NCBI GenBank assembly: GCA_010015585.1
Contig: ML975152.1
Origin: Eremomyces bilateralis CBS 781.70
Lineage: Eukaryota
Reading direction: 5' to 3' (one strand)
DNA: 64,000 nucleotides
Positions 827 through 43,894 of the stretch are shown piece by piece (within the stretch, counting starts at the first letter, position 1; the number at the start of each line of letters is the position of its first letter). The position numbers and the translations under genes are program-made. Below the pieces are notes generated by a model. It saw only the letters and a list, made by a program, of their open reading frames with translations, was not told the origin of the DNA and did not search any database.

Positions 827-1897
827 ATGGGTCTGAGTGCGCCTCGCAAGTAAGTACCTCCGGACCCTAAGTAAAGGATACCTTTTCTGATTCCTATATC
901 CTCAGCCGAGTGAAACTCTCGAGTGATCCTAACAACACAAATTGGAGCCGGTCAACCGAGCGCTTCGGACACAAGATCTTGACCACATATGGCTGGGAAC
1001 CGGGCGCGGCTCTTGGTGCGGAGAATGCAGCACAAGCAGCACACTACACCTCCGCCAACTTCTCGCACGTCCGTGCCGTGCTGAAAGATGATACTCGCGG
1101 GTTGGGCTGCAATAAGAAGTCTGCGGCGGAAAATGATACCTTTGGACTGAATCTTTTCCAGAACGTCTTGGGAAGGCTCAACGGAAAGGACGATGGTCAA
1201 CTAGAAAAAGATGCGAAGCAGTTGAGGGATGTTAATCTACGTCTCTACCAAGAGAAGGCCTTCGGTACCATGATCTTTGTACATGGGGGCTTTCTGGTCG
1301 GGGATCGGGTTGAGCGTAGCCTTCCAACAACCACCGACCGAAAACGCTCATCGACCGAGGAGAAGGAGGCTCCGGACGGTAAATCGGGTGCAATCGAATC
1401 TACTTCCCGTAGAAAGAGAAAAAGGGGAGCCGAATCCGCGGATGCTTCTTCATCTGAGCGCAACAATGAAGAACCACGTGGTTCAAAATCGAATGGCGAT
1501 GGCGTGAGTGAGATGACAGGCCGTCAAGCACGGGATGAGAGGAAAAGGCAGAGGAAGGCTAGAAGAGAATTGAGGGAGAAAAAGCGAGAAGAGAAAAGGA
1601 ACAAGAAACGACGGAAGGACGGAACTGAGTCGACAGAGAAAGGTGTTGAACCGGTGGTATCCGGAACTTCTACACCACTTGTCCTATCGTCCCATAGTTC
1701 TGGGACTTCAACTCCGATTTCAAATCCAAATATTTTGGCTGGTGGTCGCCAAGAACTACGACGCAGATCGATTCTCCAGAAGCGAATGGCCATGTCGAGT
1801 CAGACAGCACTCAATGAGGTAGGGTTGAAATGGTTTCGATATGCCTTGACGATGCTTACATTATTTGCAGATATTCATGCTCAAGGCCGGAATCTGA
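827..1897 (+). CDS. PXR1: G-patch ribosome-biogenesis/telomerase-inhibitor protein PinX1/Pxr1(Gno1)
   Basis: Spliced model 827-849, 906-1818, 1871-1897 with GT..AG introns gives MGLSAPRNRVKLSSDPNNTNWS...FGHKILTTYGWEPGAALG...KDDTRGLG (G-patch), a K/R-rich tail and C-terminal LNEIFMLK. Confidence 0.92.
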
Positions 1898-1984
1898 GCG
1901 TGTAAACGGATCTACAGAAGCCTCTAACGTTGAATTATCGGTCACGCCACCCGATGCATGGACAAAGTACGCTATGCAGCTCAA

Positions 1985-4810
1985 TCAAATACCCAAAGCC
2001 CGAACCAAAAGCCACAGTACGACCGGAACCACAACGTTATCATTCCCGCCTGTGAGGACAGCTTCCGTGAAGCTGGCACCCGAAGCCGCCGTAGCAGCCT
2101 TCGGAATCCAAGACGCCCAGTCAACGCCCCCTGTCTTCCACTGGCCAACATCCAGCCAGAATTGACTAAGAGCAAGGCCAATAAGAACCGCTACGGCGAA
2201 CGCAACGCTCCCCTCAATGCTTTTCCCGCCAGTCCACGGCCATTTAGTTCTTCCGAAACGCCGACCGACCAGGCTTGCCGCCGCATCCCCAAGCCCGACG
2301 CATATCACCCCTGTAACCATACTTAAATCACTCCCTTTGACCTCCCAGCCTTTCCACGGATCCACGCCGCCCGTTTGCATCCCCGACAAGCTCAGCCACA
2401 ACGGAGTCGCGCAGCCGATCAGGAGAAATAAGTGGCTGACCACGACCGGCCCTCGCAAGTCTCGACCGTCCACAAAAGGAGTGAGGAACGAGGCGATGGG
2501 TTTCGACAGCGGTGGGAGTTGGCTGGCGCGGAGCACGTCCAGGAGGAGGAAGATGCAGAGGACAAGGCCTAGCGCAAGCGCGCAGAAGGACGGGTCGATG
2601 TAGATCGCGGGGAGGAACATGGCGACCATGGTGCCGTGGAACACTTTCCGTCGCGTGTCTACTTCCACGGAACTGGAAAGCCGCAAAACGACCAAGAGCC
2701 CTGCACCTAGTATCGATAGCAAGTAGACACTGAGAACAAGCCGCACGTTTGCCAATCCATATCCAGCTCGAATTTTTTCTGCAAATCCAAACGACTCTTC
2801 GGTGGGGGTCGAAGATTCAAGTGGTGAAAGTGGAATCCAGCGCTCCAAATTCCAGTCAATGACTGAGAACCGAACGGCACGGATATTGCCGAAGAGGTAA
2901 CCAATCGCCCAGCCGAACGGCTCGTGGCCATCAAGTGCCTCGTGCTGGACCCATAATCGAATCGGCCCAAGAATCGTAAGGACAATAACTGCGTAGACAT
3001 AGCACGCGTACATCCACTTGCGATGAACCGCTTGCTGGGGTGTAAGTGACAGAAAGGACTTATAAAGACTGCGTGACCTCTGATGTTTTTTGGTTCGAAC
3101 AGGAATGGCAGGCGATTGGTTGCCTTTCATATTCGGCGCGGTATTCCGCCGTTGCCTCTTAATATCCGCAAGGTCAGCTTTGGGGAAAAAATCGTTCCCC
3201 CGGGTTGATTCCACTGCGGATTTGGTTTCGGCGTCGCCCTCGAAGGCTCCGAGTTTGGTTTGAACTCGATTGGCTATCTCAAGCTCGAGGGCTGCAATTG
3301 TGTTGCCCATATATTTCTGGGGAGTGTGTGCTTCTTCGCTGTCGCTGTCATCCAGTGAGGGCTTCATCGCCAGAGGAGTCCGGTCCTTGGAGGCTGCTCG
3401 TAAGGATCCCAGCAGCCTATTTAGGAAGTATTGACGCGCCTGTATAACTCTTCCTGCACGACGGAATCGCCAACGGGGTATGCGAGCCAGTGCAATGGCC
3501 CATACGATAACCGGTTTGCAAAGAACGAATAAAATTAAACCTCCGCCCCATAGCAATATTCGCAAAATTGTGGCATGCGGGGATTTTGAGAACAGGAGGA
3601 GGTTGATCAATGCTGTTGAAAGTAGTTGCAGCTCGGAAGAGAGAAGGCTTGTAGCCGTCAGATACGCCAGCGGTTTGAGAAGTGTATAGTGGAGGGGAAA
3701 CAGCATCGAGAGCAATTCGTCCCGTTGAGTGTCCACAATATGCAATGGTCCTCCATCCGCTCCGGAGGCGACCGAGTAGTATAAACCACGGTTCCTTGCT
3801 ACAAGTGGTAACACAGCCAGGATCCAATGAAAATAAGGGATAGTCTCCGAAGCACTGATCGCTGGGACTATTTGAGGAGGGAGAGAAGAGAGTCCAAGGA
3901 CGATATTGGGAATAAGGACACCCGGATGCTGAACATGTAGCGACATAGCTACTAGTACCGGAAGTATGACAGGATACAGTAATGGAGCCGGATCGAATGC
4001 TGAAGGCACCCGGATGCTATCTTTGAGTTTTGGCAAGACTGGCCACCAAGGCTTGCTGGAATGATGAATGAGACGACTGGGGTAGAGTGTGTACACGGCA
4101 TAGATAAGCAGAACGTATGTAAATAGTTCTGACGGATGTTTAGCTGATGACGGCAAACCGATGGCAATTGACTGACCAGTGCGGCTTAGCTGTAAAGAAA
4201 TCGTGTCCTTCTCCCTCCAATATACTGCTAAGGCCATGAGAAAAACCCAGGAAACTTCGGTGGCTCTTCGAAGCAACTCAATACGACGCCGCCTCAGGAA
4301 CTTCTCCCTCGCCGCCGCAGCGGCACTCTCTTCAGCGATCCGTTTCTGGTTGGCGGTTCGGGTGAAATAGTCAAGGACTTTGACATCGTGGTTCTCAACT
4401 TCCATGGGTGTCCTCGGCGGAGTAAGACTCTCGTCCCCCGAGTTCCCAGGGTCTCCAGGGCCATGACGGAGACCTTTTCTAGGTCGCGCCGGAGGAGGTG
4501 GCAGAGCTTTTATGTAGCTGGAGCTTTCATCGTCCGCTTCCGTGCCGCTGTCGCTTGATGATCGGGCGGCCCGGCGCGAGTCCCAGTCATGTTGGGATTG
4601 TCCAACTTCCGGATTTCCTCCTCTCTTCTCGTTCGGGTCGGTTTGTCCCTCGTGATCGTGGGTGGACGGAGGGTCGTGCGGAATCTCTAACCGATGGAGA
4701 TGGTAGGGTTGAGGTGTCCGAGAGAAGCTTCTTATCGAGGCAGGACTGCTATGCTCGTCCTCTGGAAACGAGCGCTGAGCGCTGAGCTCTGACATCATGA
4801 AATGCGGCAC
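1985..4810 (-). CDS. SEC59: Dolichol kinase (CTP-dependent, polytopic ER membrane protein)
   Basis: C-terminal motifs RRKVFH, D-R-GP-VVSHLFLL-GC, GLGDAAASLVGRRFGRTKW--GKSIEGS and NDN. Probable short in-frame intron near 4130-4176. Start codon uncertain. Confidence 0.9.
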   Translation of the reverse strand: MPHFMMSELSAQRSFPEDEHSSPASIRSFSRTPQPYHLHRLEIPHDPPSTHDHEGQTDPNEKRGGNPEVGQSQHDWDSRRAARSSSDSGTEADDESSSYIKALPPPPARPRKGLRHGPGDPGNSGDESLTPPRTPMEVENHDVKVLDYFTRTANQKRIAEESAAAAAREKFLRRRRIELLRRATEVSWVFLMALAVYWREKDTISLQLSRTGQSIAIGLPSSAKHPSELFTYVLLIYAVYTLYPSRLIHHSSKPWWPVLPKLKDSIRVPSAFDPAPLLYPVILPVLVAMSLHVQHPGVLIPNIVLGLSSLPPQIVPAISASETIPYFHWILAVLPLVARNRGLYYSVASGADGGPLHIVDTQRDELLSMLFPLHYTLLKPLAYLTATSLLSSELQLLSTALINLLLFSKSPHATILRILLWGGGLILFVLCKPVIVWAIALARIPRWRFRRAGRVIQARQYFLNRLLGSLRAASKDRTPLAMKPSLDDSDSEEAHTPQKYMGNTIAALELEIANRVQTKLGAFEGDAETKSAVESTRGNDFFPKADLADIKRQRRNTAPNMKGNQSPAIPVRTKKHQRSRSLYKSFLSLTPQQAVHRKWMYACYVYAVIVLTILGPIRLWVQHEALDGHEPFGWAIGYLFGNIRAVRFSVIDWNLERWIPLSPLESSTPTEESFGFAEKIRAGYGLANVRLVLSVYLLSILGAGLLVVLRLSSSVEVDTRRKVFHGTMVAMFLPAIYIDPSFCALALGLVLCIFLLLDVLRASQLPPLSKPIASFLTPFVDGRDLRGPVVVSHLFLLIGCATPLWLSLSGMQTGGVDPWKGWEVKGSDLSMVTGVICVGLGDAAASLVGRRFGRTKWPWTGGKSIEGSVAFAVAVLIGLALSQFWLDVGQWKTGGVDWASWIPKAATAASGASFTEAVLTGGNDNVVVPVVLWLLVRALGI

Positions 4811-5283
4811 ATCGCAGGTACATCACGTCGGAGATATGAGTGGTACGTTACGGTAAACAGCGTTGGAATGGGAGACACCGAAAGGACTGGCAGGAGCGGT
4901 ATGGGACTTGTTGCCCACAGATTGCAACGGCGGTGAGGGGATTGTCCTTGGATTAGTTCACCACCTAAGACACTTGAACAGCCGATTTGGACCTCAAGCT
5001 TCACATGTTTCATTGAAGACGAAGCTCCGGAGGGATGAGTGCATGGACATGAATCGCATTGTTCACGGCAATTGTACGGATTTATCTGAGAAATGAGTCA
5101 TGTTTTAATGCCCTGTGGGCTGTGGCCTAAGGCTTAAACATATCCAAAGTCTTGCGTCTCAATCGCATTTCAATTCCGTCATGGAACGAATTGATTGACG
5201 GTCAGGAAAGCGTCAACAGAAGTGGACATTCAGGCCTCTCGTTTTCATTTTTAATTTTCGCTTCGTTCCTATATTGCATTTAA

Positions 5284-10646: not shown

Positions 10647-11303
10647 GTCGAACATTTGAAACTTCCTGTCAGACCATCGTATTGCGCTTGTATATGAATA
10701 ATGATTTGATGACAAGATATTTGATGCTGCTGTCGCTATGACTACGGTACATGAAGGGTTCTCTCCGCATTGGAGCTCTAGCTTCCTGGGTTCTGTTTGA
10801 TGTCGTCCGTGTTGAAGCCCTGCTCCAGCGACCAGCACCCTGGCAAATGCCCTTTGGCAGAAGCGTACCAGAACAAGACGAAGGTAAATTTAGCAAATAT
10901 CATTTGAGAATAGGTTGAATAGCTTCTCTTACAAATGCGAAATTTCGAATAGCTATTCCGCTTGCTGCCCTTTGCTTCGTATTGGACGAGTGACGAGGCA
11001 TTTAAGTTGAGACCAAAATTTCGTGCGCCGCCTAATTGAGGCCGAAATCTTGGCATTTGCTCTCCACTTTACGCGATTCCAGAAACAGAACATCTCCAAA
11101 CTCTTAACCCCCCCATTCAGTTGATGTTGCGTTCAAAGATTGTGGGACGGACAACATCTAGATATCCCCTTCACTGCCTGTCTTGCCCAAAAGACTGCAA
11201 CCGTCCTCGAAAATCTAGATAACGGCTTTCCGCAAAATCTCCCAACCGCTGTAGCTTCACACCAAACTGGTCTATCCCGCCAACCCATCGCTACAAGATC
11301 ATA

Positions 11304-11931
11304 ATGGGGAAGACGCCTAAGCCTAAGAATCGAGGTACGGAGCCTCTCGAGCGCAAAATTCAACTTCGGTTTTGCTAACATCGAAGCAGAATTTTCGGTT
11401 CATTCCCGAACGGCACGACGACATGTCTCGCCACCCCTCAATCCCGACCAGACCGTGAAGAGCGTTGAAACTGGTACCTCCGCAGTAGGACGTCCCGACG
11501 TCCTCTCCCCGCACAGTGCGGGCGTCCACAAGCGAACCAAGCAGAAGAGCCTAACGCGTCAACAACGCTTGCGACACGAGAAGGGGATGGAGCGCGCCGA
11601 CGCCAACGTTGCGAAGCTGGAGGCGAAGGTGCAGAAGAGCACCGGCCGACATAGCACGGTCAAGAGTCGGAAAACCGACTGGCTGGACGTCAATGGCAAG
11701 CTTAAGACGGGCAGCATGTTCGCAGCGCTCGAGATTGACGATATGGAGATGAAGGGGAGCTTTTATAAAGATCAGGCGCGGCGGGAGGCTAAGGGGAGTC
11801 CCGAGCGGACTGCCAAACCCCGAGCACGAGACGTTAAGCAGACGGATGCAGACGAATCGGGCAGAAAACTGGACTTGCCAATCATGGTCAAAGGGCCGGA
11901 AGGTGTTCCCTCAATTGGTGCTGCCGGGTGA
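11304..11931 (+). CDS. ALB1: Pre-60S shuttling factor Alb1/Ecm1 family
   Basis: MGKTPKPKNR, intron, then SVHSRTARR; later LTRQQRLRHEKGMERADANVAKLEAKVQKS...VKSRKTDWLDVN, typical of the Alb1 domain. Confidence 0.8.
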
Positions 11932-28676: not shown

Positions 28677-29537
28677 CTACGCGTCCATGTCGGTGTCCTC
28701 ATCTCCCTTCTCCGCACTGTCATCCAATACCGTCGTTGTCTGTGCCTCTGCACTCCAATACCTGGTTCGTGTTAGAGCTGGCAATAAAGTTGAGCGATCA
28801 GAAACTTACGCCTTCACTCTCACCTGGAACTCCGCCACTTCGACACCGAAGAATTTCAATATCGCGCTTTGGTGCCCTGTGAGAACCTCACCCTTTTTGC
28901 ACACTGTGTAGTCCTCATCGAGGAGGACATCTCCCTTCTCTAACCGTGTGGGTAGTCCCTGCGCCCGCAAATGCACCTCTTGCATAGCCGTGACCTTTAC
29001 ATCATCCTTCGCCGGGATCTCTCCCCCTCGTGTATACACGATGCCCGCAGGGACGACGTATTTCCGGGACGCGACGGTGCCCGCACGACCGTATGCCCCG
29101 CTGGTCATGGACTTCAGGTCTTCGAGGAGGTCGTCGGGCTTCCGGGACGAGAAGATCAGACCGGTCGGTCCATCTAGATGCTCGGACAGGGTGTGCAATC
29201 CGGGCTGCGGCTCGGTCGCTGGCGTCGTGCCCATCGCTCTCGCCATGATTCGGTTCCGTCCAAAGAATATCCTAGGAGCGAGCAATTAGCTTGATTCTTC
29301 GGGTCGGAGGTCCCTGGGCAATGCCGAGGAGACAGCGGCGTACCTGCTATCCGCTGCTAAGCTCGTCCGCACGCCTTTGAGATGGTTGTTCCGCATGTTG
29401 TCCACAAACACCACATATCCGTACGGGTACTTCTCGGCGGCCTCTTCCACATTGGTCTGGAGGAGTTGGAGATCCTCCTTCGTCTTCTTTTCCACCTTGG
29501 ACAGGTGGACAACCCTTGCTCTCTTTGACTTCGGCAT
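28677..29537 (-). CDS. MRT4: Pre-60S factor Mrt4 (uL10/P0 paralog)
   Basis: MPKSKRARVVHLSKVEKK...VDNMRNNHLK...RIFFGRNRIMARAMG...YTVCKKGEVLT. Two introns; the last exon ends DEDTDMDA*. Confidence 0.95.
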
Positions 29538-30041
29538 TTTGCGATCAATGCGACAGCGGAACAAGAGAAATTATGTGGAGGGAACGGGGTGAAATTGGCA
29601 GGTATCGGTGGTGGGCGTGGAAACTTGAAATGCGTACAGCGGGCATGATTCGAAATTTCATATCGCGGAACGGAAATTTTACGCGCGACCAGGGTCTGCG
29701 GTATAGGTGTCTGTCGTCCACCGTATCAACCCAACCCTCCAATCACAAATTGATCTCCGTTTGACTGGCAAGAAATCGCGAGGCATAGTCACGTGGTCTA
29801 TGTGACTTCAATTGGAGCCTCAAAGCCTCAGGCACTCATAATTATCACCAACGTCTCGCGCAAGCTTCACGACATTGACGACTGTTTGAGATATCCTGTT
29901 CGCAATTCAGAATACACCACATCAATCCTGCATATTACAGAGTATTTAGTCAAAAATTGATATGGCATCTCAGGGTCAAGGTTTATTCTAGGCCGCACCA
30001 CACCATCATGTGCAGAATAGCCTCGCGACCAGCATCTAAGA

Positions 30042-31317
30042 ATGCTGGGCTTCATGGACTACATTCAACATGCCTTCCATCTGGCCTCACAATGGAACAG
30101 TGACAACTCATACAGTTCGCTGACGGCCTCAGCACGAGGTTTGGTTTCTCGGGACGTCTATTCAAAAGTACACGTGCTGACGGATCCTGGGAAGACATCT
30201 TAGATTTTGACATCCCGCGAGGGTTGCGGTTCAGCGTCTCGTCTCTTTCGTCCCCCAACTTCGCGAACTCCTACACCTTCGGCACGAGCGGCGTCGTCGA
30301 TGGCTCACTTTCGTACCTCTACTCGTCCTTGCCCTTGCAGGTCGCGTCGAGAAGCAAACACATCGATCTCACGGAGCTGATCCGTGGCTATCGTCATGTG
30401 TTAGAGCTGCGCCGTCCCGATAACCCTTGGTGGTGGGAGACCTGGCATCGAGGAAAACGGGTCGACCGACTAGGTGCGTATTTCGCTATGGACAACACTT
30501 ATACGCGCTTCTGATGGTGAAGGAAGCGACCCTATTGTATGGCCGACTCTACGTTCCCGCGTCGAGACTCGAAGCGCTATATCTCCGCCGGATTTCACCG
30601 ACGCGTCAAGTGCATCTTTCCTGCGTCAGCGACGAGCGACTGCAGAACGGAGGAACCATATTGGCCCTCCTGCAAGACGATCGGGCCAAGTCCTCGACCG
30701 AATACCTCTTCAGCACCGATAGCGCCCTGCTCGGGGTCCGGGGCCTGTACAATTTCGGCCCCGATCCACGATCCTCGACATTCCCTCCCAATCTTCTCAG
30801 TCGATTCTCGGTAGGCGGAGAGCTCTATTATGGACTTCTGAACGCTTCCGGAGGCTGCTCCACTGGGCTCCGCTTCACCACTCTGCCCGCACATGCGGGG
30901 TTTCCTTACACCATGACGCTGACTTTGAACCCTCTCATGGGGAACCTCAGCTCTACCTATTCAGTTAAAGCCGGGAGAAATCTGTCCATGTGCAGTCGGT
31001 TTGATTTCAATTTCTACAGCTACGAGAGCGATTTTGTGGTTGGCTGGGAGGTCTGGAGAAGGCGTGCGCGCCCGATGGAGTCAGCATCTGACCGGTTGGC
31101 AGAAGACGTCCTCAGCAAACCAGTCCCAACCCTGCGGGATAAGGAGGACGATGTGGAGGGGGTCCTCAAAGCTCGCATTGACCAGAACTGGAGGATTGGT
31201 CTCCTCTGGGAGGGGCGGATCAAGGAACTCCTAGTGACACTAGGTGCGAGCATCGACCTACGGAATCGCGACCAAATTGCGAGGTCCGTTGGCCTGGAAA
31301 TCCAATATTCTTCTTAA
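30042..31317 (+). CDS. MDM10: ERMES/SAM beta-barrel subunit Mdm10
   Basis: [28 protein letters not shown]..., [48 protein letters not shown] and C-terminal GLEIQYSS. Two introns. Confidence 0.96.
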
Positions 31318-31430
31318 TGAAGATGAAGAGAACCCGAACCGAGAAGGGGCGGCTTTTCTACAGCCCTGGGAGAACAGCTAACAGATCCTTCCGCTGAATC
31401 ATCATAGTGTGCGCTCCTTTTCAAAGGGGC

Positions 31431-32000
31431 TAACCTCCCCCCCTGCGTGATGGAACGCCCGCTGTGCTGGAACGAATTCGAGGTACTTTGCCTTCAACCC
31501 CACTCAGAGGCTCTATGGATATTGTACTTCTTATAAATCCTTATAAAATCTGTTTCCCGGCCCATCTTAAACATATGAGACGGCGTAAACCATAAAAATT
31601 ACGATTGCGTGGTCACCGGTCGGCCAATTTCGGGGCAGCACTCGGAATGCATCTTCGACGCTGAGATACTATGCCTATGCTACAACGCCACCATCATCGT
31701 AGTTTCTTTTCAAAAAGCCATAAACGAATGATCCTAAATCATATAATCCCGTTGTAATGCTAGAAGTCCTTTATCCAGAGCATGCGTTGTGTTGGAAGCG
31801 ATCTTAGATATTTCGACCATGCAGGTCGGTACTAGCAGGCGATCGCACTTCCTCTTTCGGCGACCCATACAGTCATGGGGCTATTATATAATAACTAGTA
31901 CATTGTAAATTACAATGACCTAACATGTCTCCCTAATGATGGCCTTGGCAGACTAACGCTCTTGGGTGTCACTAAGTGTCCCTGTGTGAAGGAAACCAGC
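31431..32000 (+). repeat. Left arm of a long inverted repeat flanking the NLR gene
   Basis: Reverse-complement similarity to ~35490-36105 along its length, e.g. TAACCTCCCCCCCTGCGTGATGGAAC vs GTTCCATCACGCAGGGGGGGAAGGTTA, and AGAAGTCCTTTATCCAGAGCATGCGTTGTGTT vs AACACAACGCATGCTCTGGATAAAGGACTTCT. Confidence 0.92.
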
Positions 32001-32407
32001 GTGAACTGTGAAGGCAAGCACCAGACCCAAAACTTGAGAGTCAGCGTAATGTATGAATTTGAACGACCAGCCACATGTCCGAGTTTCTCGATGACTCTCC
32101 GTCTGAGACGATCTTAAACAGATGTTAGCCGTGTGCATCCTCGACTTATCGACATAATGTGCCAACTATGGTTGACGAAGACATGCACCAGAGAGGATGG
32201 AAGAGAGGCGTTGCAGACCGTCAGGCTCGATAAGCCACAACTCGGTGTCGCTCAGCCTTGTATAATCGAAACCTCCGCAGCCTTGTGCCTGATCACATTG
32301 TTCATCGTCGTCTGTCTTGATGTGCCAGCTACTATGTGGTTCGAATTTCCCAGACCAGGCGTCACGATTTCTCGATAACGGCGATCTGTCGATTCCTGCG
32401 ACCAACG

Positions 32408-35360
32408 ATGCGCCTCTTAAAGCTCGACGGCAACGGCGAGTTCAGCCTGGAAACATTCCAAACCACGATCCCTCCTTATGCCATACTTTCTCATACGTGG
32501 GGAAGCGACAGCGATGAAGTCACATTCAAGGACGTCACGGATAGTGCCGGAAAGCAGAAGGTTGGATACCAGAAGCTGGTATTCTGCGGAGGTCAAGCGA
32601 AAGCTGACGGTCTATCCTATTTCTGGGTGGACACCTGCTGTATTGACAAATCGAATAGTACCGAGCTGGCAGAGACGATCAACTCTATGTTTCTCTGGTA
32701 CCAGAATGCCGCACGATGTTACGTCTATCTATCCGATGTTTCGGTACGCACGCCGGACGGTCTAGTGTCTCATATCGAATGGGAATCATCCTTTCGTAAT
32801 AGTCGATGGTTCACACGAGGATGGACGCTCCAAGAGCTTGTCGCGCCGAAAACCGTCGAATTCTATTCCCGAGACCACGTCCGACTAGGTGATAAGAAGT
32901 CACTCGAACGAAGCATCTACGATAGAACTGAAGTCGCTATCGAGGCACTCCAAGGCCGTTCGCTTTGTGATTTTAGCATCGAGGAGAGGTTTCAATGGGT
33001 TAAGAAGCGACAAACGACTAAAGAGGAGGATATGGCATACTGCCTTCTTGGGATTTTTCAAGTCTTCTTACCGCCTATTTATGGCGAAGGGCGAGAGCAT
33101 GCAATAAGAAGGCTGCGACGAGAGATCGAGGACTCCGAGCACAACAGCTCGCGTCCATGTAGGACCTTTGATTTCGAATGTGCGTATCTCTTTGCTAATG
33201 TGCTCCATTTTATAGCGCGAAAGTTGGCACGTACTATCTCTTTCGACCGCAATCCTCGCTTCACCGGTCGCGAATCCGAGCTTTCTCGAATTGAGAAGCT
33301 ACTCTTCCGACATGGCCAAACCACGAAGGTCGCAATCACTGGACTTGGGGGGGTGGGGAAGACGCAGTTAGCGATTGAGATAGCCTATCGGATCACGGAG
33401 AAACAGAGGGACCGCTCAGTATTTTGGATTCCTGCGACCGATCCTGAAACCCTTCTTCAGGCGTACTCGGCAGTAGCCGAAGAGTTAGATATACCCGGAA
33501 GAGATGAGCAAGGAGTAGATGTGAGGCGACTGGTTCAGAAATACCTCAGTAGCGAAGGCGCGGGCCAATGGCTCATGGTGTTTGACAACGCCGACGACAT
33601 GGATATGTGGATGGGAAAATCAACCGCTAGGCAATCTATCCGTCTCCTCGACTGCCTTCCAAGGAGCAATAAGGGAAGTATCCTCTTTACGACGCGAGAT
33701 AGGAAGCTCGCTACTAAGCTAGCGCCTCAGAACTTGGTAGAAGTGCAGGAGATGAACCTAGAGGCGGCTTCGGAGCTCCTGCAGAAATGCCTGAACGGAC
33801 TCGATATAGCGCCCTACCAAACCGCAACCGAAAACTTGCTTACGCAGCTGACTTACCTTCCGCTCGCCATCGTTCAGGCGGCAGCGTATATTAATGCGAA
33901 CGGCATCTCGATCGCGGACTATCTTTCCTTACTCGATGAGCAGGACGAGTCTATAATTGAACTTCTAAGCGAAGACTTTGAGGATAACGGCAGATACGAT
34001 AATATCAAGAACCCAGTGGCCATAACATGGCTAATATCGTTCGAGCGAATTCGGCAGCACGACTCCCTGGCGGCAGACTACTTATCGCTAACAGCATGTG
34101 TTGAACCAAAAGAGATCCCACAGTGTCTTTTTCCACCTGGTCCATCTCGCAAGAAGGAGACAGACGCTATCGGGACGCTTCATGCGTATTCATTTCTTAG
34201 CAAACATCCGGCCAGACTTACGGTCGATCTTCATCGTTTAGTACATGTAGCTGCTCGTAATTGGCTCCAAGAGAACGATCAACTGGCCCAGTGGACCGAA
34301 AAGGCAATTGTGCGACTAGAGGAGATTTTTCCGGATAATACCTACACGAACCGTAGCATATGGAGGGCGTACCTGCCGCACGTGCGCGTTGTGCTGCAGT
34401 CTGACTTCGTCCGGAAGGATTCGAAGAGGAGGATAGATCTCCAATGGAGATATGGAACGTGTCTTGACGCCGACGGACGATGGAGTGAGGCAGAGATTGC
34501 GTATTCCCAGGTGCTCGAAATAGAAACGGGGTTGCTCGGCACAGAGCATCCAGACACGCTGACCAGCATGGCCAACCTGGCGTCGACGTACCGGAATCAA
34601 GGCCGATGGAAGGAGGCCGAAGAGCTGGANNNNNNNNNNNNNNNNNNNNNNNNNNNNNNNNNNNNNNNNNNNNNNNNNNNNNNNNNNNNNNNNNNNNNNN
34701 NNNNNNNNNNNNNNNNNNNNNNNNNNNNNNNNNNNNNNNNNNNNNNNNNNNNNNNNNNNNNNNNNNNNNNNNNNNNNNNNNNNNNNNNNNNNNNNNNNNN
34801 NNNNNNNNNNNNNNNNNNNNNNNNNNNNNNNNNNNNNNNNNNNNNNNNNNNNNNNNNNNNNNNNNNNNNNNNNNNNNNNNNNNNNNNNNNNNNNNNNNNN
34901 NNNNNNNNNNNNNNNNNNNNNNNNNNNNNNNNNNNNNNNNNNNNNNNNNNNNNNNNNNNNNNNNNNNNNNNNNNNNNNNNNNNNNNNNNNNNNNNNNNNN
35001 NNNNNNNNNNNNNNNNNNNNNNNNNNNNNNNNNNNNNNNACGCTGACCAGCATGGCCAACCTGGCGTCGACGTGGAAAGCGCAGGGTCGAGATACAGAGG
35101 CTGTAGGTCTAATGACGGAGTGTGCATGGCTTCGAGAACGGGTGCTAGGGGTTAGCCATACGCTGACCAGCATGGCCAACCTGGCGTCGACGTGGAAAGC
35201 GCAGGGTCGAGATACAGAGGCTGTAGGTCTAATGACGGAGTGTGCATGGCTTCGAGAACGGGTGCTAGGGGTTAGCCATCCGTATTTCATTTCTTCCTCG
35301 AATATGTTGGCGGACTGGGAGGCAGAACAACGAGGTGCTCGCACTGACACAAGCCACTAG
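32408..35360 (+). CDS. Fungal NLR-like protein: HET (PF06985-type) - NB-ARC - TPR repeats
   Basis: HET motifs YAILSHTWG, YFWVDTCCIDK, INSMFLWYQNAARCYVYLSDV and SRWFTRGWTLQEL. NB-ARC motifs FTGRE, GLGGVGKT, WLMVFDNADD, ILFTTRD, YLPLAI and LHRLVH. TPR unit HPDTLTSMANLASTY. In-frame 57-nt intron 33159-33215. Assembly gap within the TPR region. Confidence 0.93.
34630..35039. other. Assembly gap (N-run) inside the TPR-repeat coding region
   Basis: Run of N flanked by near-identical TPR-coding units. Confidence 0.99.
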
Positions 35361-35489
35361 GATTGTTGTGGCTGGAGGGCACAATTTTAAAAGACAGAAT
35401 ACCTCTCAAATGTATGGTGAGATGATCGCCAAGCCCTTCTGAGACTGTTAGAAAGTCGAAAGTCTTAAAAATTTGGCCAGCGAATCTCA

Positions 35490-36105
35490 GTAGCTGTGTT
35501 TCTCCACACAGGGACATTGTTGATGTTCCTGGGTTGGCACCCTCAGCCCATTCTCAGGGACACCTTGCGACACCCAAAAGGGTTAGTCTGGCAAGGCCAG
35601 GATTAGAGAGTCCGGCGAGATCATTGTTATTTACGATGTATTCTTAATTATGTAATAGCCCTGTGACCGTATAGGTCGCCGAAAGAGGAAGTGTGATCGG
35701 CTGCAAGTACCGACCTATAGTGGAAATGTTTGAAATCGCTTCGAACACAACGCATGCTCTGGATAAAGGACTTCTAACATTAGAACGGGATTTTATGGCT
35801 TAAAGTGATTTATCTTATGACCTTTTGAATAGGAAATATGATGGTGGCGCTGTAGCATGGAAATACTGTCGCGGCGTCGACGATGTATTCCGAGTGCTGC
35901 GCTGAAATATGCTGATCGGCGACCATGCAATTGTAATTTTTACGTTTGACAAAGTCCTAGATGTTTAAGAATGGCTAGAAAATCTATTCTATATGAAATC
36001 ATAAGAATTACAACATGAACAGAGCCTCTGAGCGGGTTTGAAGTCAAAGTACCTCGATTTTGTTCCAGCACGGCGGTTGTTCCATCACGCAGGGGGGGAA
36101 GGTTA
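35490..36105 (-). repeat. Right arm of the long inverted repeat flanking the NLR gene
   Basis: Reverse complement of 31431-32000 with substitutions and indels. Begins ~130 bp after the NLR stop codon. Confidence 0.92.
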
Positions 36106-37453
36106 CAGCTTCCTTCACCATTCGAAAAACCAGGAACTGAATTCAGCGTCGCTCATCTCCACGATTGTTCCTGCAGGAGCTCATATGAATTTCTGATCGT
36201 TTAAGACGCACATGTCACATTTGCACAGACAGACAGACAATGTTCCATTCCCCATGCCGCGATCTTAAATTAGAATAATAGAAGACATGAAGGCATGGGA
36301 TGGCCAATCAAGTCGTTTCAATATATTGCGTTTCCCGATCCCGTTCGCTCAACCTGGCACAGATCCAAGTGCAAGTCAATATAGACAAGGCCTACGTCGA
36401 CATTGACAGAAATTACAGCCCTAATAGTTGACATTTAATGATCGACGTCACCGAACCGATGCTTGACTTTCCCGAGGATAGGGCAACGCATGCAGGAAGT
36501 GCCTCATCAATACAGCCGTGCGTCCGCGAATCAATTTTCCCCCTCCAGGAATTTTTGGTCTCACTTTCTGGTCGTTGCTTTGCATTGAATAGGCTGTAGA
36601 TCCATTGGACCAGGCTTTTCCGTTCAACCGTCGTACAGCAGTGAGATTATTGCTGCTGGCAAATGTGAAATGGTGCCACAACAGGACTGGGATATATACG
36701 GTTGAACCCTTAACTCCAACCGGTTTTCTGTCAAGTGTCAACAACACTCGCTCGTGGTTCCCTGCGAATCACCGCGGCTTTCATTCATCCTCAGAGCCTC
36801 AAGACCGGAGGCGTGTCCCCATTTGCATTCCAGGGTTCAGCCATGGCTTCTCATGACACCAGGCATTCTCCGTCTTTCGGTGTCCATACGTGCCCAGGTT
36901 TCATACAGCAAGGGCCAACGCACTGAAAACCGGTGCATGAAGGAATTTGATACCGGAGGGCAAAGGTGCCAAGTACTCGAAGAGACCGGCAAGGACAATA
37001 TATGGGCTTGGGATTCAATGACACGTATCTAAGCTTGGCCATCTGACTTAGCAGGTCCTCACATTCGATGTTCAGCTCAGTGAGCTCACAATCTCAGAGA
37101 CCCTCCATGGCAGGTCAGACTCAAGAATTTATCCCGTCGGAAAGGTAGTGTAGGTATGCCAGCTACAGTTTAGATTCAGTAATACGGTAATCAGGAGGCG
37201 TATTCAATTGTCAGGCTGCTGAACCAGAGCTACTGTCCTCGTCTATCACGAAAGCAAGGCGGCGATTAGTCACATCCCTAGCTAACCAGCTATCCCCGCG
37301 TAGGGGTCATTGCAGCGGCTTGGAAGTTGGAGCCCATTTATGATGGAGCGTTGGGCGATTCGCCTTATCCTGGAATGTGTTGTCGTTGGGCCAGGCCGAA
37401 AGCAAGGCAGCAAGAATCCAATAGCATTCAACCAAAACTAGGTCCCCTACATG

Positions 37454-37770
37454 TAGGGTGGTTGAATTTCAGTAATTTATATATATTTCTTCGGATGACT
37501 GATAGAATTTAAATTACGCATATAAATTGCTTCTTTCCGAAATTTACGCTAGTCCTATTTTGGCTTGGTTAGATTAAATATGGGTGCCTTGCAGCCTTAG
37601 GCATCAAAACCGAACTCCGTGAAATTCCTCAAAATCTCACCATCTTAACTCTATCTCCGCCATCCAAATTAGTAAACGAAAGCTTGGCATGAAAGATTTC
37701 CGGAGGTCTGGAAATCTTTCATGAAAATTACAAGAGCAATAGATTTCATTGAAATCTTTCACCCACCCTA
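37454..37770 (-). mobile_element. hAT-type MITE, copy 2 (317 bp, inverted relative to copy 1)
   Basis: Termini TAGGGTGGTTGAA...TTCACCCACCCTA. TSD CCTACATG (37446-37453) vs CGTACATG (37771-37778), 7/8 match. Confidence 0.93.
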
Positions 37771-40700
37771 CGTACATGGGAGAGAGCAGTCCCTTTTGAC
37801 CGGTACGGCCCGGAAGATGTCGATTGACTTAACGCGTGTCGTGCATGCGCCATGGCGTCCCTTCTCCCTAGGGGAGGATTGTGAATGTTTTGATACTTGA
37901 GCTCTAGAATCTGGATGTTCAGGAACAGTCGATCAACCCTCGACGGACTGGTTCACTGGTTCACTGGTTCGGTGGCGGACGAGCCTTAACGCAAGCTCCG
38001 ACCAGGAGTCGATTCATATCCGCCCCAGCCACCGGATGGCGCGTTGGCGACACGACTTGATTTCTTGATCATGGCATATACCACGGGAGCGCTAGTGATC
38101 GAGCATGCCTCGTTCCACAAAGCGTATCGATGTCTCAACTCTCAAGGATGAAGGTCAGAGAATGGAGTGATCGATTCGTCATATGGCGGACCCGGGACCA
38201 CTGACCAGCCACCGTGTCTTTTCTTCCACCATCCTGAGTAGCCACGGAGTCATGACGATCTCAATGGGAAAGGCATCCGGTTAATAGCGGCGTGCCAGCT
38301 TCAAAGTGGATTATCGCTTGTCAACGGCGGAATGGCGGCGATACAAGCCGCTGATGACTTTGTGTATATGTGCCACCCTCTCAGGTCGGCGTCCCTCAAA
38401 AGTCAAACCCAATGAAAACAACATCCCGGAATATATTTCGCGCAAATTTGAGACGTCTTGTTCCCGATAGAGTGGGGGTTTTCAGCTTTAAGCGCTATCT
38501 TCGAAAATCCATCCCTCACCTAACACCTTTCATGAGATTCCCGCAGGAGGGATGATGCTGCGGTATACCGGGTCAAGGTCTAGTAGAGTTGATACCATCT
38601 CAGAATGGAAGTCCGATGCCACAATTTATGACATGCCCGGACTTCTCTGCTTCAAGGCTTCCAGCACCCCGCAATATCGTCATCCGTAGTCCGTCGCACC
38701 CACGTTTCTTCCGTGCTCAAGACCTGCCAGGCTACCATGCAGCGTAAAACTGTAAATGGTAAGGATATGGATCACCTAGACTATCAGACGTGGACCTGAT
38801 GGCTGACTGCCAATATCCTTGCTTTCCTCGTGGACTGGAGGCATTATTTAAAGGGATTGCCCCTTATCAATCTGTGCACTGGTTGAGGCGACAGTCGGGC
38901 TTCTGCAGGCCGTAAACTTGGACAATACCCAGTCGCACAGGAAAACAATGGGATGGTGTCTTCGGACATGATGTTTTTCTTCTGCCAGGAGAACCCACTG
39001 CTCGTATGAACAGCTAGGGCTCGTCGGATCGGTAGGAGTCTCCAGGCGTGCTCGCACTCTCGCCGTGCACGGCATATAATAATAACCACGAGGCGGTAGG
39101 TCGTCTGAATGTGGACTCTCGACTATGGTCGTACAAGCGGCAGGAGATGATCGGTCGGCAAGATGGTGGTGGCTGGACTCCTGGTCGGTTGTCATGCTCA
39201 GAACAAAGGGGCTGTCATCCACCATCAGAAGTCCGTACGGAGCCGTGTCGTAGAGTCAGCAAGGTCAGCAACCGACCAGCGAACACCTCAACATCCCACC
39301 AGATGTTCTTTGTTGGCCTTTTGGTTAGCGGGGGCATTTTTCCCTGGTCCGCATGTTCAAGCAACTGACACAGGGGCTTACCCTACAGCCCTTATCCCCG
39401 TGCTACCATCGACGCGTCTTAGACTCCAGGTTGAGCGGGGCATGATTAGTTTCTTACGGCATCAAGCAACACAAGTCGTGATCAAGTAATAACAGGCTGA
39501 CCTGACAACGGGCTGATAGTCCGTCAATCCGTCCGACATTTTGGCCGGGATTTTCGAGCCTTGGGAACGTTCAGCCTGCACAGTGCACACATTCCTTCAC
39601 TGGCGCAGGAAAGGTCCCAGAGGGCGGAGATGCAGGGCATGGCTGGCGGCTCCCGATGTACGCAACCGGCAGTTCCGGGACCATGCCTAGGCCAAAAAGC
39701 TGGTCCTGCAACGGTCCGGATCTGGGTTCGGAGGAGTTCTAAATTCAGACAAGTCAGCTCCTCAGGAGGACGGGAGAGAGCGTTACGCTGCATGGTGCAG
39801 GGACCAGGACGGCCGATGGATTGATATGGGAGGATTGGATTTTAGAGATGCTCGATCCGATGTCGGTACTGAGGCTTAATTATTTCGTTGTTGGTACTGT
39901 GAACGGGTGTAGAATGATTGCCTGTAGATTTTGGTACCTGATTATTACCATAATCGCTGGCTGAATTATGAATTGATGATGGTAAGAAAGATCAGCGGCC
40001 TGGATGGTTCCCTGCAATAGCTAGGTGGTTTGGTTGTTGGATGACTGCATCAATCCGGATTCGTCCCTGGTCCTCCCCAGCTTCGTGTCGATTATTATTG
40101 GTTACGGTCATCGACTCTCAGACTCATCGTGCTGTCCGCTCGTCAGCTGCCTGTCACGGTTGGAGAATTTTATTCGGAGTTTGCTGATCGATCAGATGTT
40201 GTTGGGGCAGTGGCAGCTGGCGGTCCACCCTGTTGTCCATCTCCCGCGCAGTCTCGTTTGGTTCTGACTTCTGAGGGCGTGTGCTTGAGCTCGTTCGCGC
40301 TTCGCGTCCGCGGCGTCGCACAGGAGGAGCGGCAACTAACAGCTCTCATGTTTTAGTTTTCCCTTACCAACAAGTGCAATGCGTGTGCCAGGGGCTTCCC
40401 TGCACGATCCGTTCGTTACACCAAAATCGTTCCACTAACACTGGGCCGAACTTGAACTGGCGAGACCAGCAGAGACTCGGTGAAGTGTGGACCCGAAGTT
40501 AGACTGGTTGGAGTTTAGTGAGGGCTCAGTTTGAGAGTTTAGGCTGTTTAACAGAGGGAGCCCACTCCGGCGCTCCAACGGCCCTCGCACCACCAAAGTC
40601 CACGGAGCGTCCTGGATGTCTGCACTGGAGCAGACCGCCTAGACCGACCGCCCAAACGTACCGCCTTAACATACCGTCTACCGCCTAGACAGTGAGTAGA

Positions 40701-41751
40701 CACACATCCCTGCACGGCTGCACCCACACATACCCACCGACCAGACAATACTACTCACCGTCTAAACCCCCTGTAGTACAGCCAGTAGCCCCCAGTCGCA
40801 TACCGTAGCTTGCACCAGATCTGCCTCGTTCCCTACCGATCCCCCTACTGGCCCCAGGCCACACTGCTCAAAGTTGGAGAGCAGTTCCCTCTTCCCGAGA
40901 CACTAAGACTCCAGCTCCACCCCCTTGTCCCTTTAAAGGCCCTTAGTTACTGAGTACCCCTGATAGGCTGCTGTCTGATACCCTCAGTCCAGTCCCTGGC
41001 AGTCGGCTCCCTCCTCTGCCGCTCTTCTGCGTGATCCTCTCCCCGTCTCCCGTTCCCCGTGCCTCCTCTGATCCTCTCCCACACTCCCACCACCTCCACT
41101 AACCTCTCTCCCTTCGTCTCCTCCTAATCCTCCTCACTTCACCTTTTTCCCGTTATTCCTGTACCTCCACCCCCTCAACTTGCGTCTCGACGCCTTGTCG
41201 TTCCTTATTCCCTTTTTTTCTTAACCCAGTGCTACATCACTGTCACTCCTTTTCCCATCTTTTTTCCAATCCCCTTCGAGAGACTTGCGGGCGTCATCGA
41301 CCTCCCCGTTCCCTTTGAAGGCCCATTTTCGCGGTCGTCGTCACTCCTTTCGACGCCGCCTTTTCCTCTCCTTGTTTGGCGTACGCCAGTCCGTTCCTTT
41401 GTTCTCATCTATCCAAAGAATCCCCTCTTCGACTCATCGGCTATGGCCTGATCCCATCATCTTTCTTCCCGCGGCTACTAGTGAGCCTCGACGATCCTTT
41501 CCGACTTTTTGTTCTGCAATCGCCTGGGCGGTGCTGCTTCGCTTCCCTCTCCCGTACCTCACCCTCCTTTAAGCCTTCGGTCATCGAGGCGCAACAAAAA
41601 CAGTTCAACTCTTCCATTCTTTTTCATCATACTACCGTTTACACTCCGTCGAACGAACGTACCACAAACGAAGGTCGGCGATCCCTCGACCGCGACTCCT
41701 CCACGACTCACCCCTCCGTACACCGCACCAGGTCTTGGCACCTCCTTCGCA

Positions 41752-43894
41752 ATGCAAGAAAGCTCCATCGCCATGGTGCAACCAAGCGATGGGGCAAAGG
41801 CTCTCTCTGCTTCCCCAGCGTCCACGGCGGTTTCAACCCATACCCCAGGCTCGGCACCGCGTCGACCTCCGCGTAAAAGCACCTTAACGCAGCAGCAGAA
41901 GAATCAGAAACGACAACGCGCAACTCAGGATCAACTCATCACCCTCGAAGTCGAGTTCAACAAAAACCCGACTCCCACCGCCATGGTGCGGGAACGCATT
42001 GCACAGGAAATCAATATGACCGAACGCTCCGTCCAGATTTGGTTTCAAAATCGGTAAGTTGGGCTGACTCGTGGACCTGCAGAGCCCTGGCTGACATCGG
42101 AATAGACGAGCGAAGATCAAGAATATTGCGAAGAAGAGCATCGAAAACGGGGAGGATTGCAACGATATCCCGGAATCCATGAGGCGATATCTCGCTCTCC
42201 AGGCAATGGAATCCGGTAAGTCTCTTGTGGGTCGGGACCTCCTTGGCCGCGGTCTTTCGTACGGGAATGGGCTCCTGCTCAACACCGAAACAAGCTCGAG
42301 CAAAGTCGGTATGTACTTGATCAGGGTTCTCTTCATTTATCAAATATTAACTGAGCTAGTCATCCACCATCTACATTGTCGCTCCCTTACCATCGGTTCA
42401 TGGCGTCGAGTTGGCCAGACCGCGATGGACCTCGTCATATTCTACTCGCCGGAAAAACGATGCGTTACATATTATATCAACAACGATTCGGCCGGCTACA
42501 AGATCGAATATCCTTTCAACGCGATCAAGAACATCTCGCTGGAAAGCGGAGATGCACTGAGCGCGGAGGGTGCGTCACAGCGCCCTGGAGGTCTCATCGT
42601 GGAGTTGAATCGTCCTCCCAACTTCTTCATGGACTCCTCAGGCTCCGGAGGCTTCTATCAATGTGGTGATTTCACAGAAGAGCAGCAAGCCTCCCAATGT
42701 CTCGCCCATCATCTTGGTGGCCATCCCAAGGTTCTCAGCGGGCAGTTGGCCAAACTGGTGTCGCTCGAGTCTTTCCAAAGCCGCTTCCAGACTTTCGACC
42801 CGAACGGCTTGACCGTATCCGCTCCCGTATCCCCCATCGAACATCGTCCCGCTAGCCAACCGAACCATTTCGCGCATCCGCATATGAACGGGTTCCAGGA
42901 ATCGCAGTTCGCACCGAACCTCCTCCACCCAGGACGTGGCCACAAACGACAGCGAAGCCGGTCCGTACCAGCCGCCATCGACTTTTCCATGATTCGGCAT
43001 CCCATGCCCAGCTTCCTGGTCCACCAACAGCAGCATGTTCCGTCGCCTCTGCATCAAGTCCATCCAATCGCGCCGAACCAGGGGAGTCCATTCGTCCCTC
43101 CCCAGAACCTGTTCGCGCCGGTTCCTCAGCACGCCTCACCTTCCCCGTTCCCGAACGCCGGATTCGGTCCTCCTTTGCAGAATCATCACCCTCAAGGGCC
43201 ACCGAATGGTCTATCCATCGACACGACGGCAGCATCCCCGATGGGCCAGTACTCGATGGACATGCGCGCATACCCCATGACAGCCACCACTGCTCCTTCG
43301 CCGTCCGAATTCGGCACGCCCGGGTTTTTCCCGGTGTCGGGACCGCCGGGACCGGATGCAATGCAGACCGCTCCCTTCAATCAACCATTCTCCGGCCCGC
43401 CTCAGAACCCGCAACCTATCCCCGCCCAAGTCATGACACCCATGAACGAACCCACGATGCACCACACTCCGCTCCCCGACTCCACGCCTCAAACTACGTC
43501 CATCAGCCCCATGGCCGGCGTCAGCCAACCAGTCCAGCCCCCACAGGAACAACAAAGCCAACCGTACGGCGTTTCGAACCCCGTCATCGCGACCCACTCG
43601 CCCCCGCTCGGCGCACTCGGTCGCTCCGCATCAGCGGATTTCCTCGTGGGGGCTCTACCGGAGGACGGCTCGGGGTTGCAAGAGGAAAATTTTCTTTCCA
43701 ACGATTTCTTCGGGTCCAAAGGCCAGGGCGTCACGTTGCCCATTCGCTCGCCCTTCATCGGGCATAACAGCCCGTTCAGTGCGAACGATGGAAACTATAG
43801 CTCTGGGATGGGAGACGATGATGGCTTGATGATGGGACTTGGGGAGCCGCTGGACGACGGCGTGCCTGGATTCTGGGGGGACGGGGATAACTAG
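41752..43894 (+). CDS. Homeobox transcription factor of the Pho2/Grf10/RfeB type
   Basis: Homeodomain [23 protein letters not shown]...[18 protein letters not shown] spans intron ~42054-42105. Conserved SLTIGSWRR...[16 protein letters not shown]...DFTEEQQAS block and [10 protein letters not shown]. Long pyrimidine-rich leader. Confidence 0.9.

Follow-up and report, generated by a model that had tools for sequence, protein, structure and literature searches.

How a single complete immune-receptor gene comes to lie between two long inverted repeats amid housekeeping genes is the question raised by positions 31431-36105 of the stretch analyzed here, a window of 64,000 nucleotides from contig ML975152.1 of the fungus Eremomyces bilateralis CBS 781.70 (assembly GCA_010015585.1). 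The only gene between the two repeat arms encodes a NOD-like receptor (NLR) of HET-NB-ARC-TPR architecture. The unit is probably a non-autonomous class II element, that is, one bounded by terminal inverted repeats (TIRs), with a complete and apparently functional NLR, together with the upstream and downstream regions of that gene, as its sole cargo. A non-autonomous cargo element carrying an NLR had been proposed in the first-pass annotation, which was made from the sequence alone, and this proposal is supported by an arm terminus that occurs in multiple copies, by a related copy in a metagenome contig (denoted L001), by a single clade of NLR paralogues, and by the absence of an internal transposase.

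A repeat finder run on the window pairs 31436-32000 with 35493-36099 in four collinear inverted blocks (Table 1), and BLASTN searches of each arm against the window merge 31431-31984 and 36105-35555 into a single alignment with 79.7% identity over 556 columns (E 2e-138). The inverted repeats of about 0.6 kb around the NLR that had been reported in the first-pass annotation are thus confirmed, with 80% identity; no further copy of the arm was detected within the window at E<=1e-3. In a global alignment, the arms are identical at 443 of the 549 aligned positions, with 7 gap columns. The right arm contains an extra piece of 46 nt between two copies of TGTCCCTG, which corresponds to the indel between direct repeats noticed previously, and the nine differences previously counted in the outer 85 nt are recovered as 8 substitutions and 1 indel. 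Repeat-induced point mutation (RIP) was rejected as the origin of the arm divergence because the counts of 59 transitions and 47 transversions, with 12 of the 59 transitions in the CpA/TpG context, are not RIP-like.

The weak similarity that had been suspected to extend some 80 bp beyond the ends of the arms (CGCTGAAT) is attributable to chance, its score being equalled by 174 of 2000 shuffles and by 279 of 2000 random 80-mers from the window. Given this result and the lack of any homology outside TAACC in the third copy, L001, the ends of the repeat are placed at 31431 and 36105. A 19-nt inverted match (17 of 19 positions) between 30509-30527, at the start of the MDM10 exon, and 36108-36126, just outside the right arm, was also treated as a chance occurrence, with about 0.2 such matches expected in 6.5 kb by our estimate. 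A search of 31300-36300 against Rfam at E<=1 yielded no match, and accordingly the arms are not a known RNA gene. Interpretation of the arm as an intron in the 5' untranslated region (UTR), with GGTACTT near the outer end and ACTAAC near the inner end, would leave the inverted 3' copy unexplained. Each terminus contains two exact copies of the 10-mer GTG[A/C]TGGAAC at a distance of 17 nt, and all 4 exact matches to this motif in the window belong to the arm termini; when one mismatch is allowed, there are 13 matches in the window against 8.5 expected. These motif pairs are candidate transposase-binding sites.

The cargo fits a fungal NLR, i.e., a signal transduction ATPase with numerous domains (STAND), in that Pfam searches identify an N-terminal HET domain (residues 24-114, E 2e-12), a central NB-ARC domain (residues 289-468, E 7e-12) and C-terminal TPR repeats (TPR_10, E 3e-18, and TPR_12). 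As previously annotated, the interior of the unit contains nothing but this gene, with the ATG at 32408 and the stop codon ending at 35360. Overlooked in that annotation was an assembly gap of 410 N at 34630-35039, within the TPR array, due to which the length of the unit (~4.7 kb) is only nominal and the NLR frame across the gap cannot be verified. The two 120-nt units that immediately follow the gap, 35040-35159 and 35160-35279, are perfectly identical. The window NLR is 99% identical to the annotated protein P0121, the sole difference being a spliced, in-frame and stop-free intron of 57 nt (33159-33215) with GT..AG ends and a GCTAAT branch site; this intron is spliced in the P0121 model and is read through in the model of P0001, a paralogue with 98% identity. 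No transposase remnant was found inside the unit: the stop-to-stop open reading frames (ORFs) of at least 30 aa in the arms and spacers (40 of 43 scanned, the other three overlapping the ends of the NLR itself) contain no Pfam family above the threshold and only two sub-threshold chance matches, which fits the definition of a non-autonomous cargo element.

The arms are not unique to this locus; the unit is present in multiple copies, and its edge lies at the arm terminus. The evidence comes from two sequencing runs of one sample, X1 and X2, which contain 85-87% of the words of 29500-34600; as a proxy for an assembly-wide search for the arm, contigs of these runs were aligned on 30500-34600 at a likeness of at least 80%. 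The MDM10 flank is represented by one contig (depth 224.7 in X1 and 168.3 in X2) that shows 0 differences from the window and ends at 31459 in both runs; if, as we presume, the contigs derive from a 31-mer graph, the outermost word that occurs in another copy as well would begin near 31430. Numerous diverged contigs stack up from 31431 inward, and the repeated zone is continuous through the arm, the spacer and the NLR. From the bin 31322-31458 on, the summed contig depth in X1, a quantity distinct from copy number, is 1206-2580 in the arm, 900-1612 in the spacer and 1357-4557 in the NLR. The 465 aligned X1 pieces comprise 159 with at least 99% identity, 100 with 95-99%, 108 with 90-95%, and 98 with less than 90%. 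At position 31463, where the window has T, C is found in 11 distinct contigs of X1 and 9 of X2, and one diverged paralogous contig spans 32245-32524. Furthermore, a contig of a third run, X3, which comes from another study, matches exactly the interval 31431-31513, with 11 differences. The presence of the terminus in at least 11 distinct contigs of the source runs and in L001 excludes the option, raised with the first-pass annotation, that the arms are unique to the locus, and the option that they occur only as solo repeats finds no support; the repeated zone runs on through the spacer and the NLR.

Two further features of these data were not used in the argument. Exact pieces of the NLR have about twice the flank depth (475 and 405 vs 224.7 in X1; 337-342 vs 168.3 in X2), so a second identical copy is possible; it is not relied on because P0001 differs within one such piece and depth is not a copy number. 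X3 has no cover over the MDM10 flank, and since absence of cover proves nothing, neither an empty site nor a species was deduced from it. With regard to the cargo, the summed contig depth of the first TPR unit (34473-34600) in X1 reaches 31754, compared with 224.7 for the flank; therefore, near-identical TPR units are common to very many genes in this genome. The TPR array of the cargo belongs to the 'high internal conservation' type of repeat.

The copy in L001 was found with a 30-nt pattern of the terminus, a search that samples copies in which the exact pattern is retained; L001 was the sole locus recovered, and there were 0 matches to the pattern in prokaryote genome contigs and likewise 0 in viral contigs. 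The arm of L001 extends from 9988 to approximately 10525 and is followed by an ATG at 10924 that opens a SesA (E 6e-22)-NB-ARC-TPR gene in the same orientation as in the window. In both loci, the arm sits 400-420 nt upstream of the NLR start codon. The outer end of the L001 arm, TA followed by ACCTCCCCCCCTGCG, is the same as the sharp outer end of the window arm, and in a three-way alignment of L001 with both window arms, the homology starts abruptly at TAACCTCCCCCCCTGCG and ends at ..TCCCTG. The three outer flanks (window left, window right and L001) are mutually unrelated, and in L001 the flanks are unrelated on both sides of the arm. The terminus of L001 is 86% identical to the window arm over 78 nt; over the whole arm, 349 of 532 positions are identical to the left window arm and 361 of 528 to the right one (66-68%), compared with 440 of 549 between the two window arms.

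The NLR of L001 consists of a SesA ORF, two probable introns, and then a P-loop NTPase and TPR_10 repeats that continue to the contig end. One of the apparent introns (within 11548-11930) interrupts the P-loop codons (GLGGVG, ~55 nt, KSQLAIEY) and another follows SesA; the gene looks intact. The 10 kb upstream in this contig contain ordinary genes (YjeF_N, SH3). Given that the YjeF_N fragment is 85-87% identical to homologs from several Dothideomycete orders and 79% identical to that of E. bilateralis, which ranks 17th, the L001 organism is another Dothideomycete that is not a close relative of E. bilateralis. That a non-coding arm can still be aligned between such organisms suggests constraint or transfer rather than neutral vertical descent.

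In a protein search with the NLR, 7964 of the 8000 scored candidates had E<=1e-20, and the best 120 were listed. E. bilateralis CBS 781.70, the source of a protein 100% identical to the RRP5 ORF of the window and listed on a scaffold of 1,593,860 nt, the length also given for the scaffold of P0121, possesses seven paralogues of this NLR on at least six scaffolds: P0121 (the window gene), P0001, P0002, P0004, P0006, P0122 and P0007. The accessions of the other six are KAF1814208, KAF1814281, KAF1810813, KAF1811768, KAF1809378 and KAF1809665. The seven proteins look intact and are 80-98% identical; measured against the window protein in the alignment, the identity is 80-96%. A quick maximum-likelihood analysis of 31 sequences (1026 columns), with branch support limited to the Shimodaira-Hasegawa-like approximate likelihood ratio test (SH-aLRT), places the seven paralogues in one clade (SH-aLRT 100) that is sister to two proteins of Zopfia rhizophila (KAF2189111 and KAF2188822); the nine sequences share a stem of 0.32 with a support of 100. 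The identity between the E. bilateralis and Z. rhizophila NLRs is 74.9-78.5%, whereas every other match among the best 120 is at or below 61%. In contrast, RRP5 of the two fungi is only 51.8% identical (YjeF_N of the same pair, 81.0%), and for comparison with Hymenoscyphus the values are 56.2% for the NLR and 50.2% for RRP5. The best non-self match of RRP5 has 56% identity, and by this measure Zopfia is no closer to Eremomyces, a genus that has been placed in its own order (PMC7082219), than dozens of other fungi. The NLR similarity (75-79%) is thus at odds with how distantly the two species are related: the comparison of NLR tree and species tree suggested in the first-pass annotation yields discordance for the nearest outside relatives, the Zopfia proteins. 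Horizontal transfer is the simplest reading of this similarity. The two closest Zopfia NLRs and the Zopfia RRP5 (P0005, P0112, P0229) are all listed on one contig of 2,456,366 nt, which may be a coincidence due to a single large scaffold.

Whether the ends of the unit betray a particular transposon superfamily was addressed through the target site. TA precedes ACC at all 3 termini available (window left, window right and L001). A scan of all boundary offsets revealed no symmetric direct repeat longer than 2 nt at the ends, and at symmetric boundaries, 2 of 8 flank bases match. Read from the outside inward, the three termini all begin with TAA, which assigns the third base to the repeat. The target-site duplications of known superfamilies are 8 bp in hAT, 9-11 bp in Mutator, 3 bp in CACTA and 3 bp (TWA) in PIF/Harbinger; taken together with the lack of a symmetric repeat longer than 2 nt, these lengths argue against all four. 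This leaves as options a TA-inserting family (Tc1/mariner/pogo-like) or a family that generates no duplications. Members of Tc1/mariner/pogo are recognized by duplication of TA and by their own type of DD(E/D) transposase; the TA at the termini is compatible with this assignment, and no transposase was found among the window ORFs scanned.

The unit lies among housekeeping genes, including RRP5, MDM10, a homeodomain gene, peptidase M1, inositol-1-phosphate synthase and others. Its left arm begins 113 nt after the MDM10 stop, close to the distance of ~115 bp given in the first-pass annotation. Domains were sought in 56 proteins, among them 54 of the 59 ORFs of 36000-42200, as well as in 27 of the 39 window ORFs of at least 170 aa, the other 12 being antisense overlaps or already scanned. 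The surrounding window ORFs scanned contained neither a transposase nor a recombinase domain; taken together with the housekeeping neighbors, this identifies the unit as an island among core genes. On the right side, no Pfam family was detected in 51 ORFs from 36019-41623. The interval 36106-41484 has a normal GC content (0.45-0.58) and may be a long regulatory region. The coordinates of all features are listed in Table 1.

Table 1. Features of the NLR-carrying unit and its flanks in the 64,000-nt window
Feature	Position	Strand	Description
Left flank: MDM10, last exon	30514..31317	+	Pfam MDM10, E 5e-98; single-copy core gene; stop 31315-31317
TA at left edge	31431..31432	.	either one half of a TA target-site duplication or the two outermost bases of the repeat
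Left arm (TIR-L)	31431..32000	+	core homology 31431-31984; 31977-32000 pairs with 35493-35516 across the 46-nt indel
Terminal ~80 nt	31431..31513	+	best-conserved part of the arm; two GTG[A/C]TGGAAC 10-mers at 31447-31456 and 31464-31473
Inverted block 1	31436-31697/35838-36099		262 nt, 79%
Inverted block 2	31735-31820/35717-35802		86 nt, 86%
Inverted block 3	31823-31984/35555-35716		162 nt, 82%
Inverted block 4	31977-32000/35493-35516		24 nt, 83%
5' spacer	32001..32407	+	arm to ATG; presumed promoter and 5' UTR; repeated in the genome; no Pfam match
Cargo NLR	32408..35360	+	ATG 32408, stop 35358-35360; annotated protein P0121
3' spacer	35361..35492	+	stop codon to right arm; no Pfam match
Right arm (TIR-R)	35493..36105	-	reverse complement of the left arm; motif pair 36062-36071 and 36079-36088; TA 36104-36105
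Right flank	36106..41484	.	~5.4 kb without recognizable ORF, then homeodomain gene (Homeodomain in 41485-42054)

The unit displays several features of class II TIR elements, namely terminal inverted repeats, multiple copies that (as judged by proxy) stop at the termini in unrelated flanks, a host gene inside, and no transposase. Among the alternatives, the one that survives best is that the arm is a self-contained repeat of ~570 nt, either a small non-autonomous element or a regulatory module that NB-ARC-TPR genes have co-opted, and that this repeat was inserted or recruited separately on each side and marks NLRs without moving them. Such a repeat would account for the sharp arm ends, the inner one included, that the window has in common with L001 despite unrelated neighboring spacers and NLR N-termini, for the greater depth of the terminus (4817-5122 at 31463-31477) relative to the arm middle (1206-2580), and for the single arm visible in L001. 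However, the arm has neither terminal inverted repeats of its own nor TG..CA ends nor an A-rich tail, and it matches nothing in Rfam; independent insertions do not explain the same placement and orientation upstream of the NLR start codon in two organisms; and the spacer and the NLR reach approximately the depth of the arm middle, within a repeated zone that is continuous from 31431 inward. We consider this explanation unlikely.

Next in rank, and unlikely as well, is an ordinary dispersed or segmental duplication with ectopic recombination, in which the inverted repeat would be an old local duplication copied along with the gene, with neither transposition nor a transposase involved. This scenario is compatible with the lack of duplication beyond TA, the lack of a partner element and the 20% divergence of the arms, but its breakpoints would not be expected to match the ends of the inverted repeat, whereas the observed switch from single to multiple copies falls at the arm terminus. 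Moreover, L001 and the X3 contig begin at the same base, and the unit stands alone among housekeeping genes. An assembly artefact around the gap in the TPR array, suggested by the run of 410 N and the two perfectly identical 120-nt units that follow it, is very improbable because the arms, at a distance of 500-3000 nt from the gap, are not identical but 80% alike, the independent contig L001 has the same arm beside an NLR, and an annotated protein, P0121, spans the gene.

If the unit is indeed a mobile cassette, its history could be outlined as follows. A DDE transposase encoded elsewhere would bind the conserved terminal ~80 nt, with the two GTG[A/C]TGGAAC sites, cut at the ends and reinsert the cassette; as in Tc1/mariner/pogo elements, the insertion sites would probably be TA dinucleotides. 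Repeated mobilization would have multiplied the NLR within the genome, and the cargo could then have diversified through substitutions in the HET domain, turnover of TPR repeats, and variation between HET and SesA N-termini among members. The cassette, or its NLR, might also have crossed between distant Dothideomycete lineages.

Several observations weigh against this interpretation. It rests on neither an empty site nor a transposase nor an autonomous partner, and one complete element is known, paired arms around the other six paralogues being a prediction. The L001 contig stops in the TPR array, so that only one arm is visible, and the inner end of the arm is common to the window and L001, as would be the case with a self-contained repeat of ~570 nt. 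A difference of 20% between the arms is large for a recently moved element; furthermore, an old specialization of left and right arms does not account for this divergence, since the two share 80% identity, against 66-68% between either of them and L001. The TA at the ends is not separable from two more bases of the palindromic repeat ends, and accordingly no target-site duplication can be demonstrated. Summed contig depth does not translate into copy number; neither the number of distinct contigs nor the place at which the flank contig breaks off depends on it. Of the 15 joints among contigs, several tie the inner end of the arm (31970-31994) to 32277-32385, with a shorter side of only 20-26 nt, which makes them weak. 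Finally, instead of transfer, an old paralogue that was differentially lost could account for the similarity of the Zopfia NLRs.

A transposon-like cassette nevertheless remains the reading we favor for this locus, with somewhat better than an even chance of being correct. A broader proposition is advanced tentatively and, in our estimate, falls somewhat short of an even chance: that Dothideomycetes harbor a family of small, transposase-less cassettes with long TIRs, the sole cargo of which is a whole NLR, and that these cassettes are mobilized in trans, amplify NLRs to many intact dispersed copies, exchange HET and SesA death domains, and move horizontally between orders. The origin and renewal of the large, patchy NLR repertoires of fungi are still to be explained, and a whole-NLR cassette would be a concrete mechanism that is testable with respect to NLR expansion, presence/absence variation, and phylogenies at odds with the species tree. 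Since the same termini adjoin NLRs whose death domains differ between the two organisms, the ends can serve as a probe for the family in any fungal genome. The results suggest that small transposon-like cassettes allow fungi to disseminate immune receptors within a genome and perhaps from one genome to another. If this is the case, part of the innate immune repertoire of fungi would be mobile DNA, similarly to the defense genes of bacteria, and a receptor involved in cell death or allorecognition could confer a selfish advantage on the cassette. Such elements would add a small-scale counterpart to the Starships and a fungal, complete-gene counterpart to the Pack elements of plants.

The literature searched contained no account of a small cassette in which long inverted repeats enclose one NLR as the cargo, in agreement with the first-pass annotation, in which no described fungal family with this layout was recognized, although supplementary tables, which were not covered, could list such repeats. 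The cargo of Pack elements usually consists of gene fragments, and their target-site duplications have the length typical of the superfamily concerned (9-11 bp in Mutator). By contrast, the unit described here contains a whole intact gene with its flanks, has ~570-nt arms that are 80% alike, shows no duplication of 3 bp or more, and resides in a fungus. What is shared is the general plan: Pack-TYPE, or transduplicating, elements (Pack-MULEs and Pack-CACTA of plants) hold host coding DNA between the terminal inverted repeats of DNA transposons and are copied around the genome (PMC8903248), and the E. bilateralis unit, like these, is transposase-less, with host coding DNA between inverted repeats, and is present in multiple copies.

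Two precedents come from the same fungal class. In Dothideomycetes, hAT elements have captured histone H3 and amplified it to many copies, with little RIP in the copies of Pyrenophora (PMC6710886); here too, a DNA transposon would multiply a host gene. These hAT elements are complete and retain the transposase, and their housekeeping cargo is mostly RIP-inactivated in Pseudocercospora (PMC6710886), whereas the unit in E. bilateralis has no transposase and no 8-bp duplication and carries an immune receptor with at least seven intact-looking copies. ToxhAT, 14.3 kb in length and bounded by 74-bp TIRs of ~92% identity, has been horizontally transferred; among its several genes are those for a hAT-like transposase, the effector ToxA and a Patatin-TPR protein (PMC6737239). 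It resembles the present unit in being a TIR-bounded cargo element of Dothideomycetes, with a TPR gene among its cargo, and differs from it in that the latter is ~4.7 kb long and combines ~570-nt arms with one NLR and nothing else.

Starships often carry NLRs, including those with HET- and SesA-type N-termini, and codiversification of cargo and element has been described for them (PMC9156397). They are thus fungal elements with NLR cargo, as the unit analyzed here probably is, but their four founding members span 76,706-195,340 bp, and the group is defined by a DUF3435 tyrosine recombinase, the 'captain' (PMC9156397); the present unit is ~4.7 kb in size, possesses long inverted repeats, and has no DUF3435 domain in the window ORFs scanned.

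The closest case with respect to the gene itself is that of the Podospora NLRs with highly conserved internal repeats, in the flanks of which transposable elements are enriched; in the sections cited, mobilization is only speculated upon, and the origin of new NLRs is posed as a question (PMC13449251). The HET-NB-ARC-TPR architecture, the identical TPR units and the association with transposable elements are common to both cases. Whereas in Podospora the association is a statistical enrichment in the flanks, in E. bilateralis the gene is located inside a defined inverted-repeat unit that is itself repeated. Gene-carrying TIR elements, such as ToxhAT and the H3-bearing hAT elements, are already known in Dothideomycetes; the new part would be the probable cassette with long TIRs and a whole NLR.

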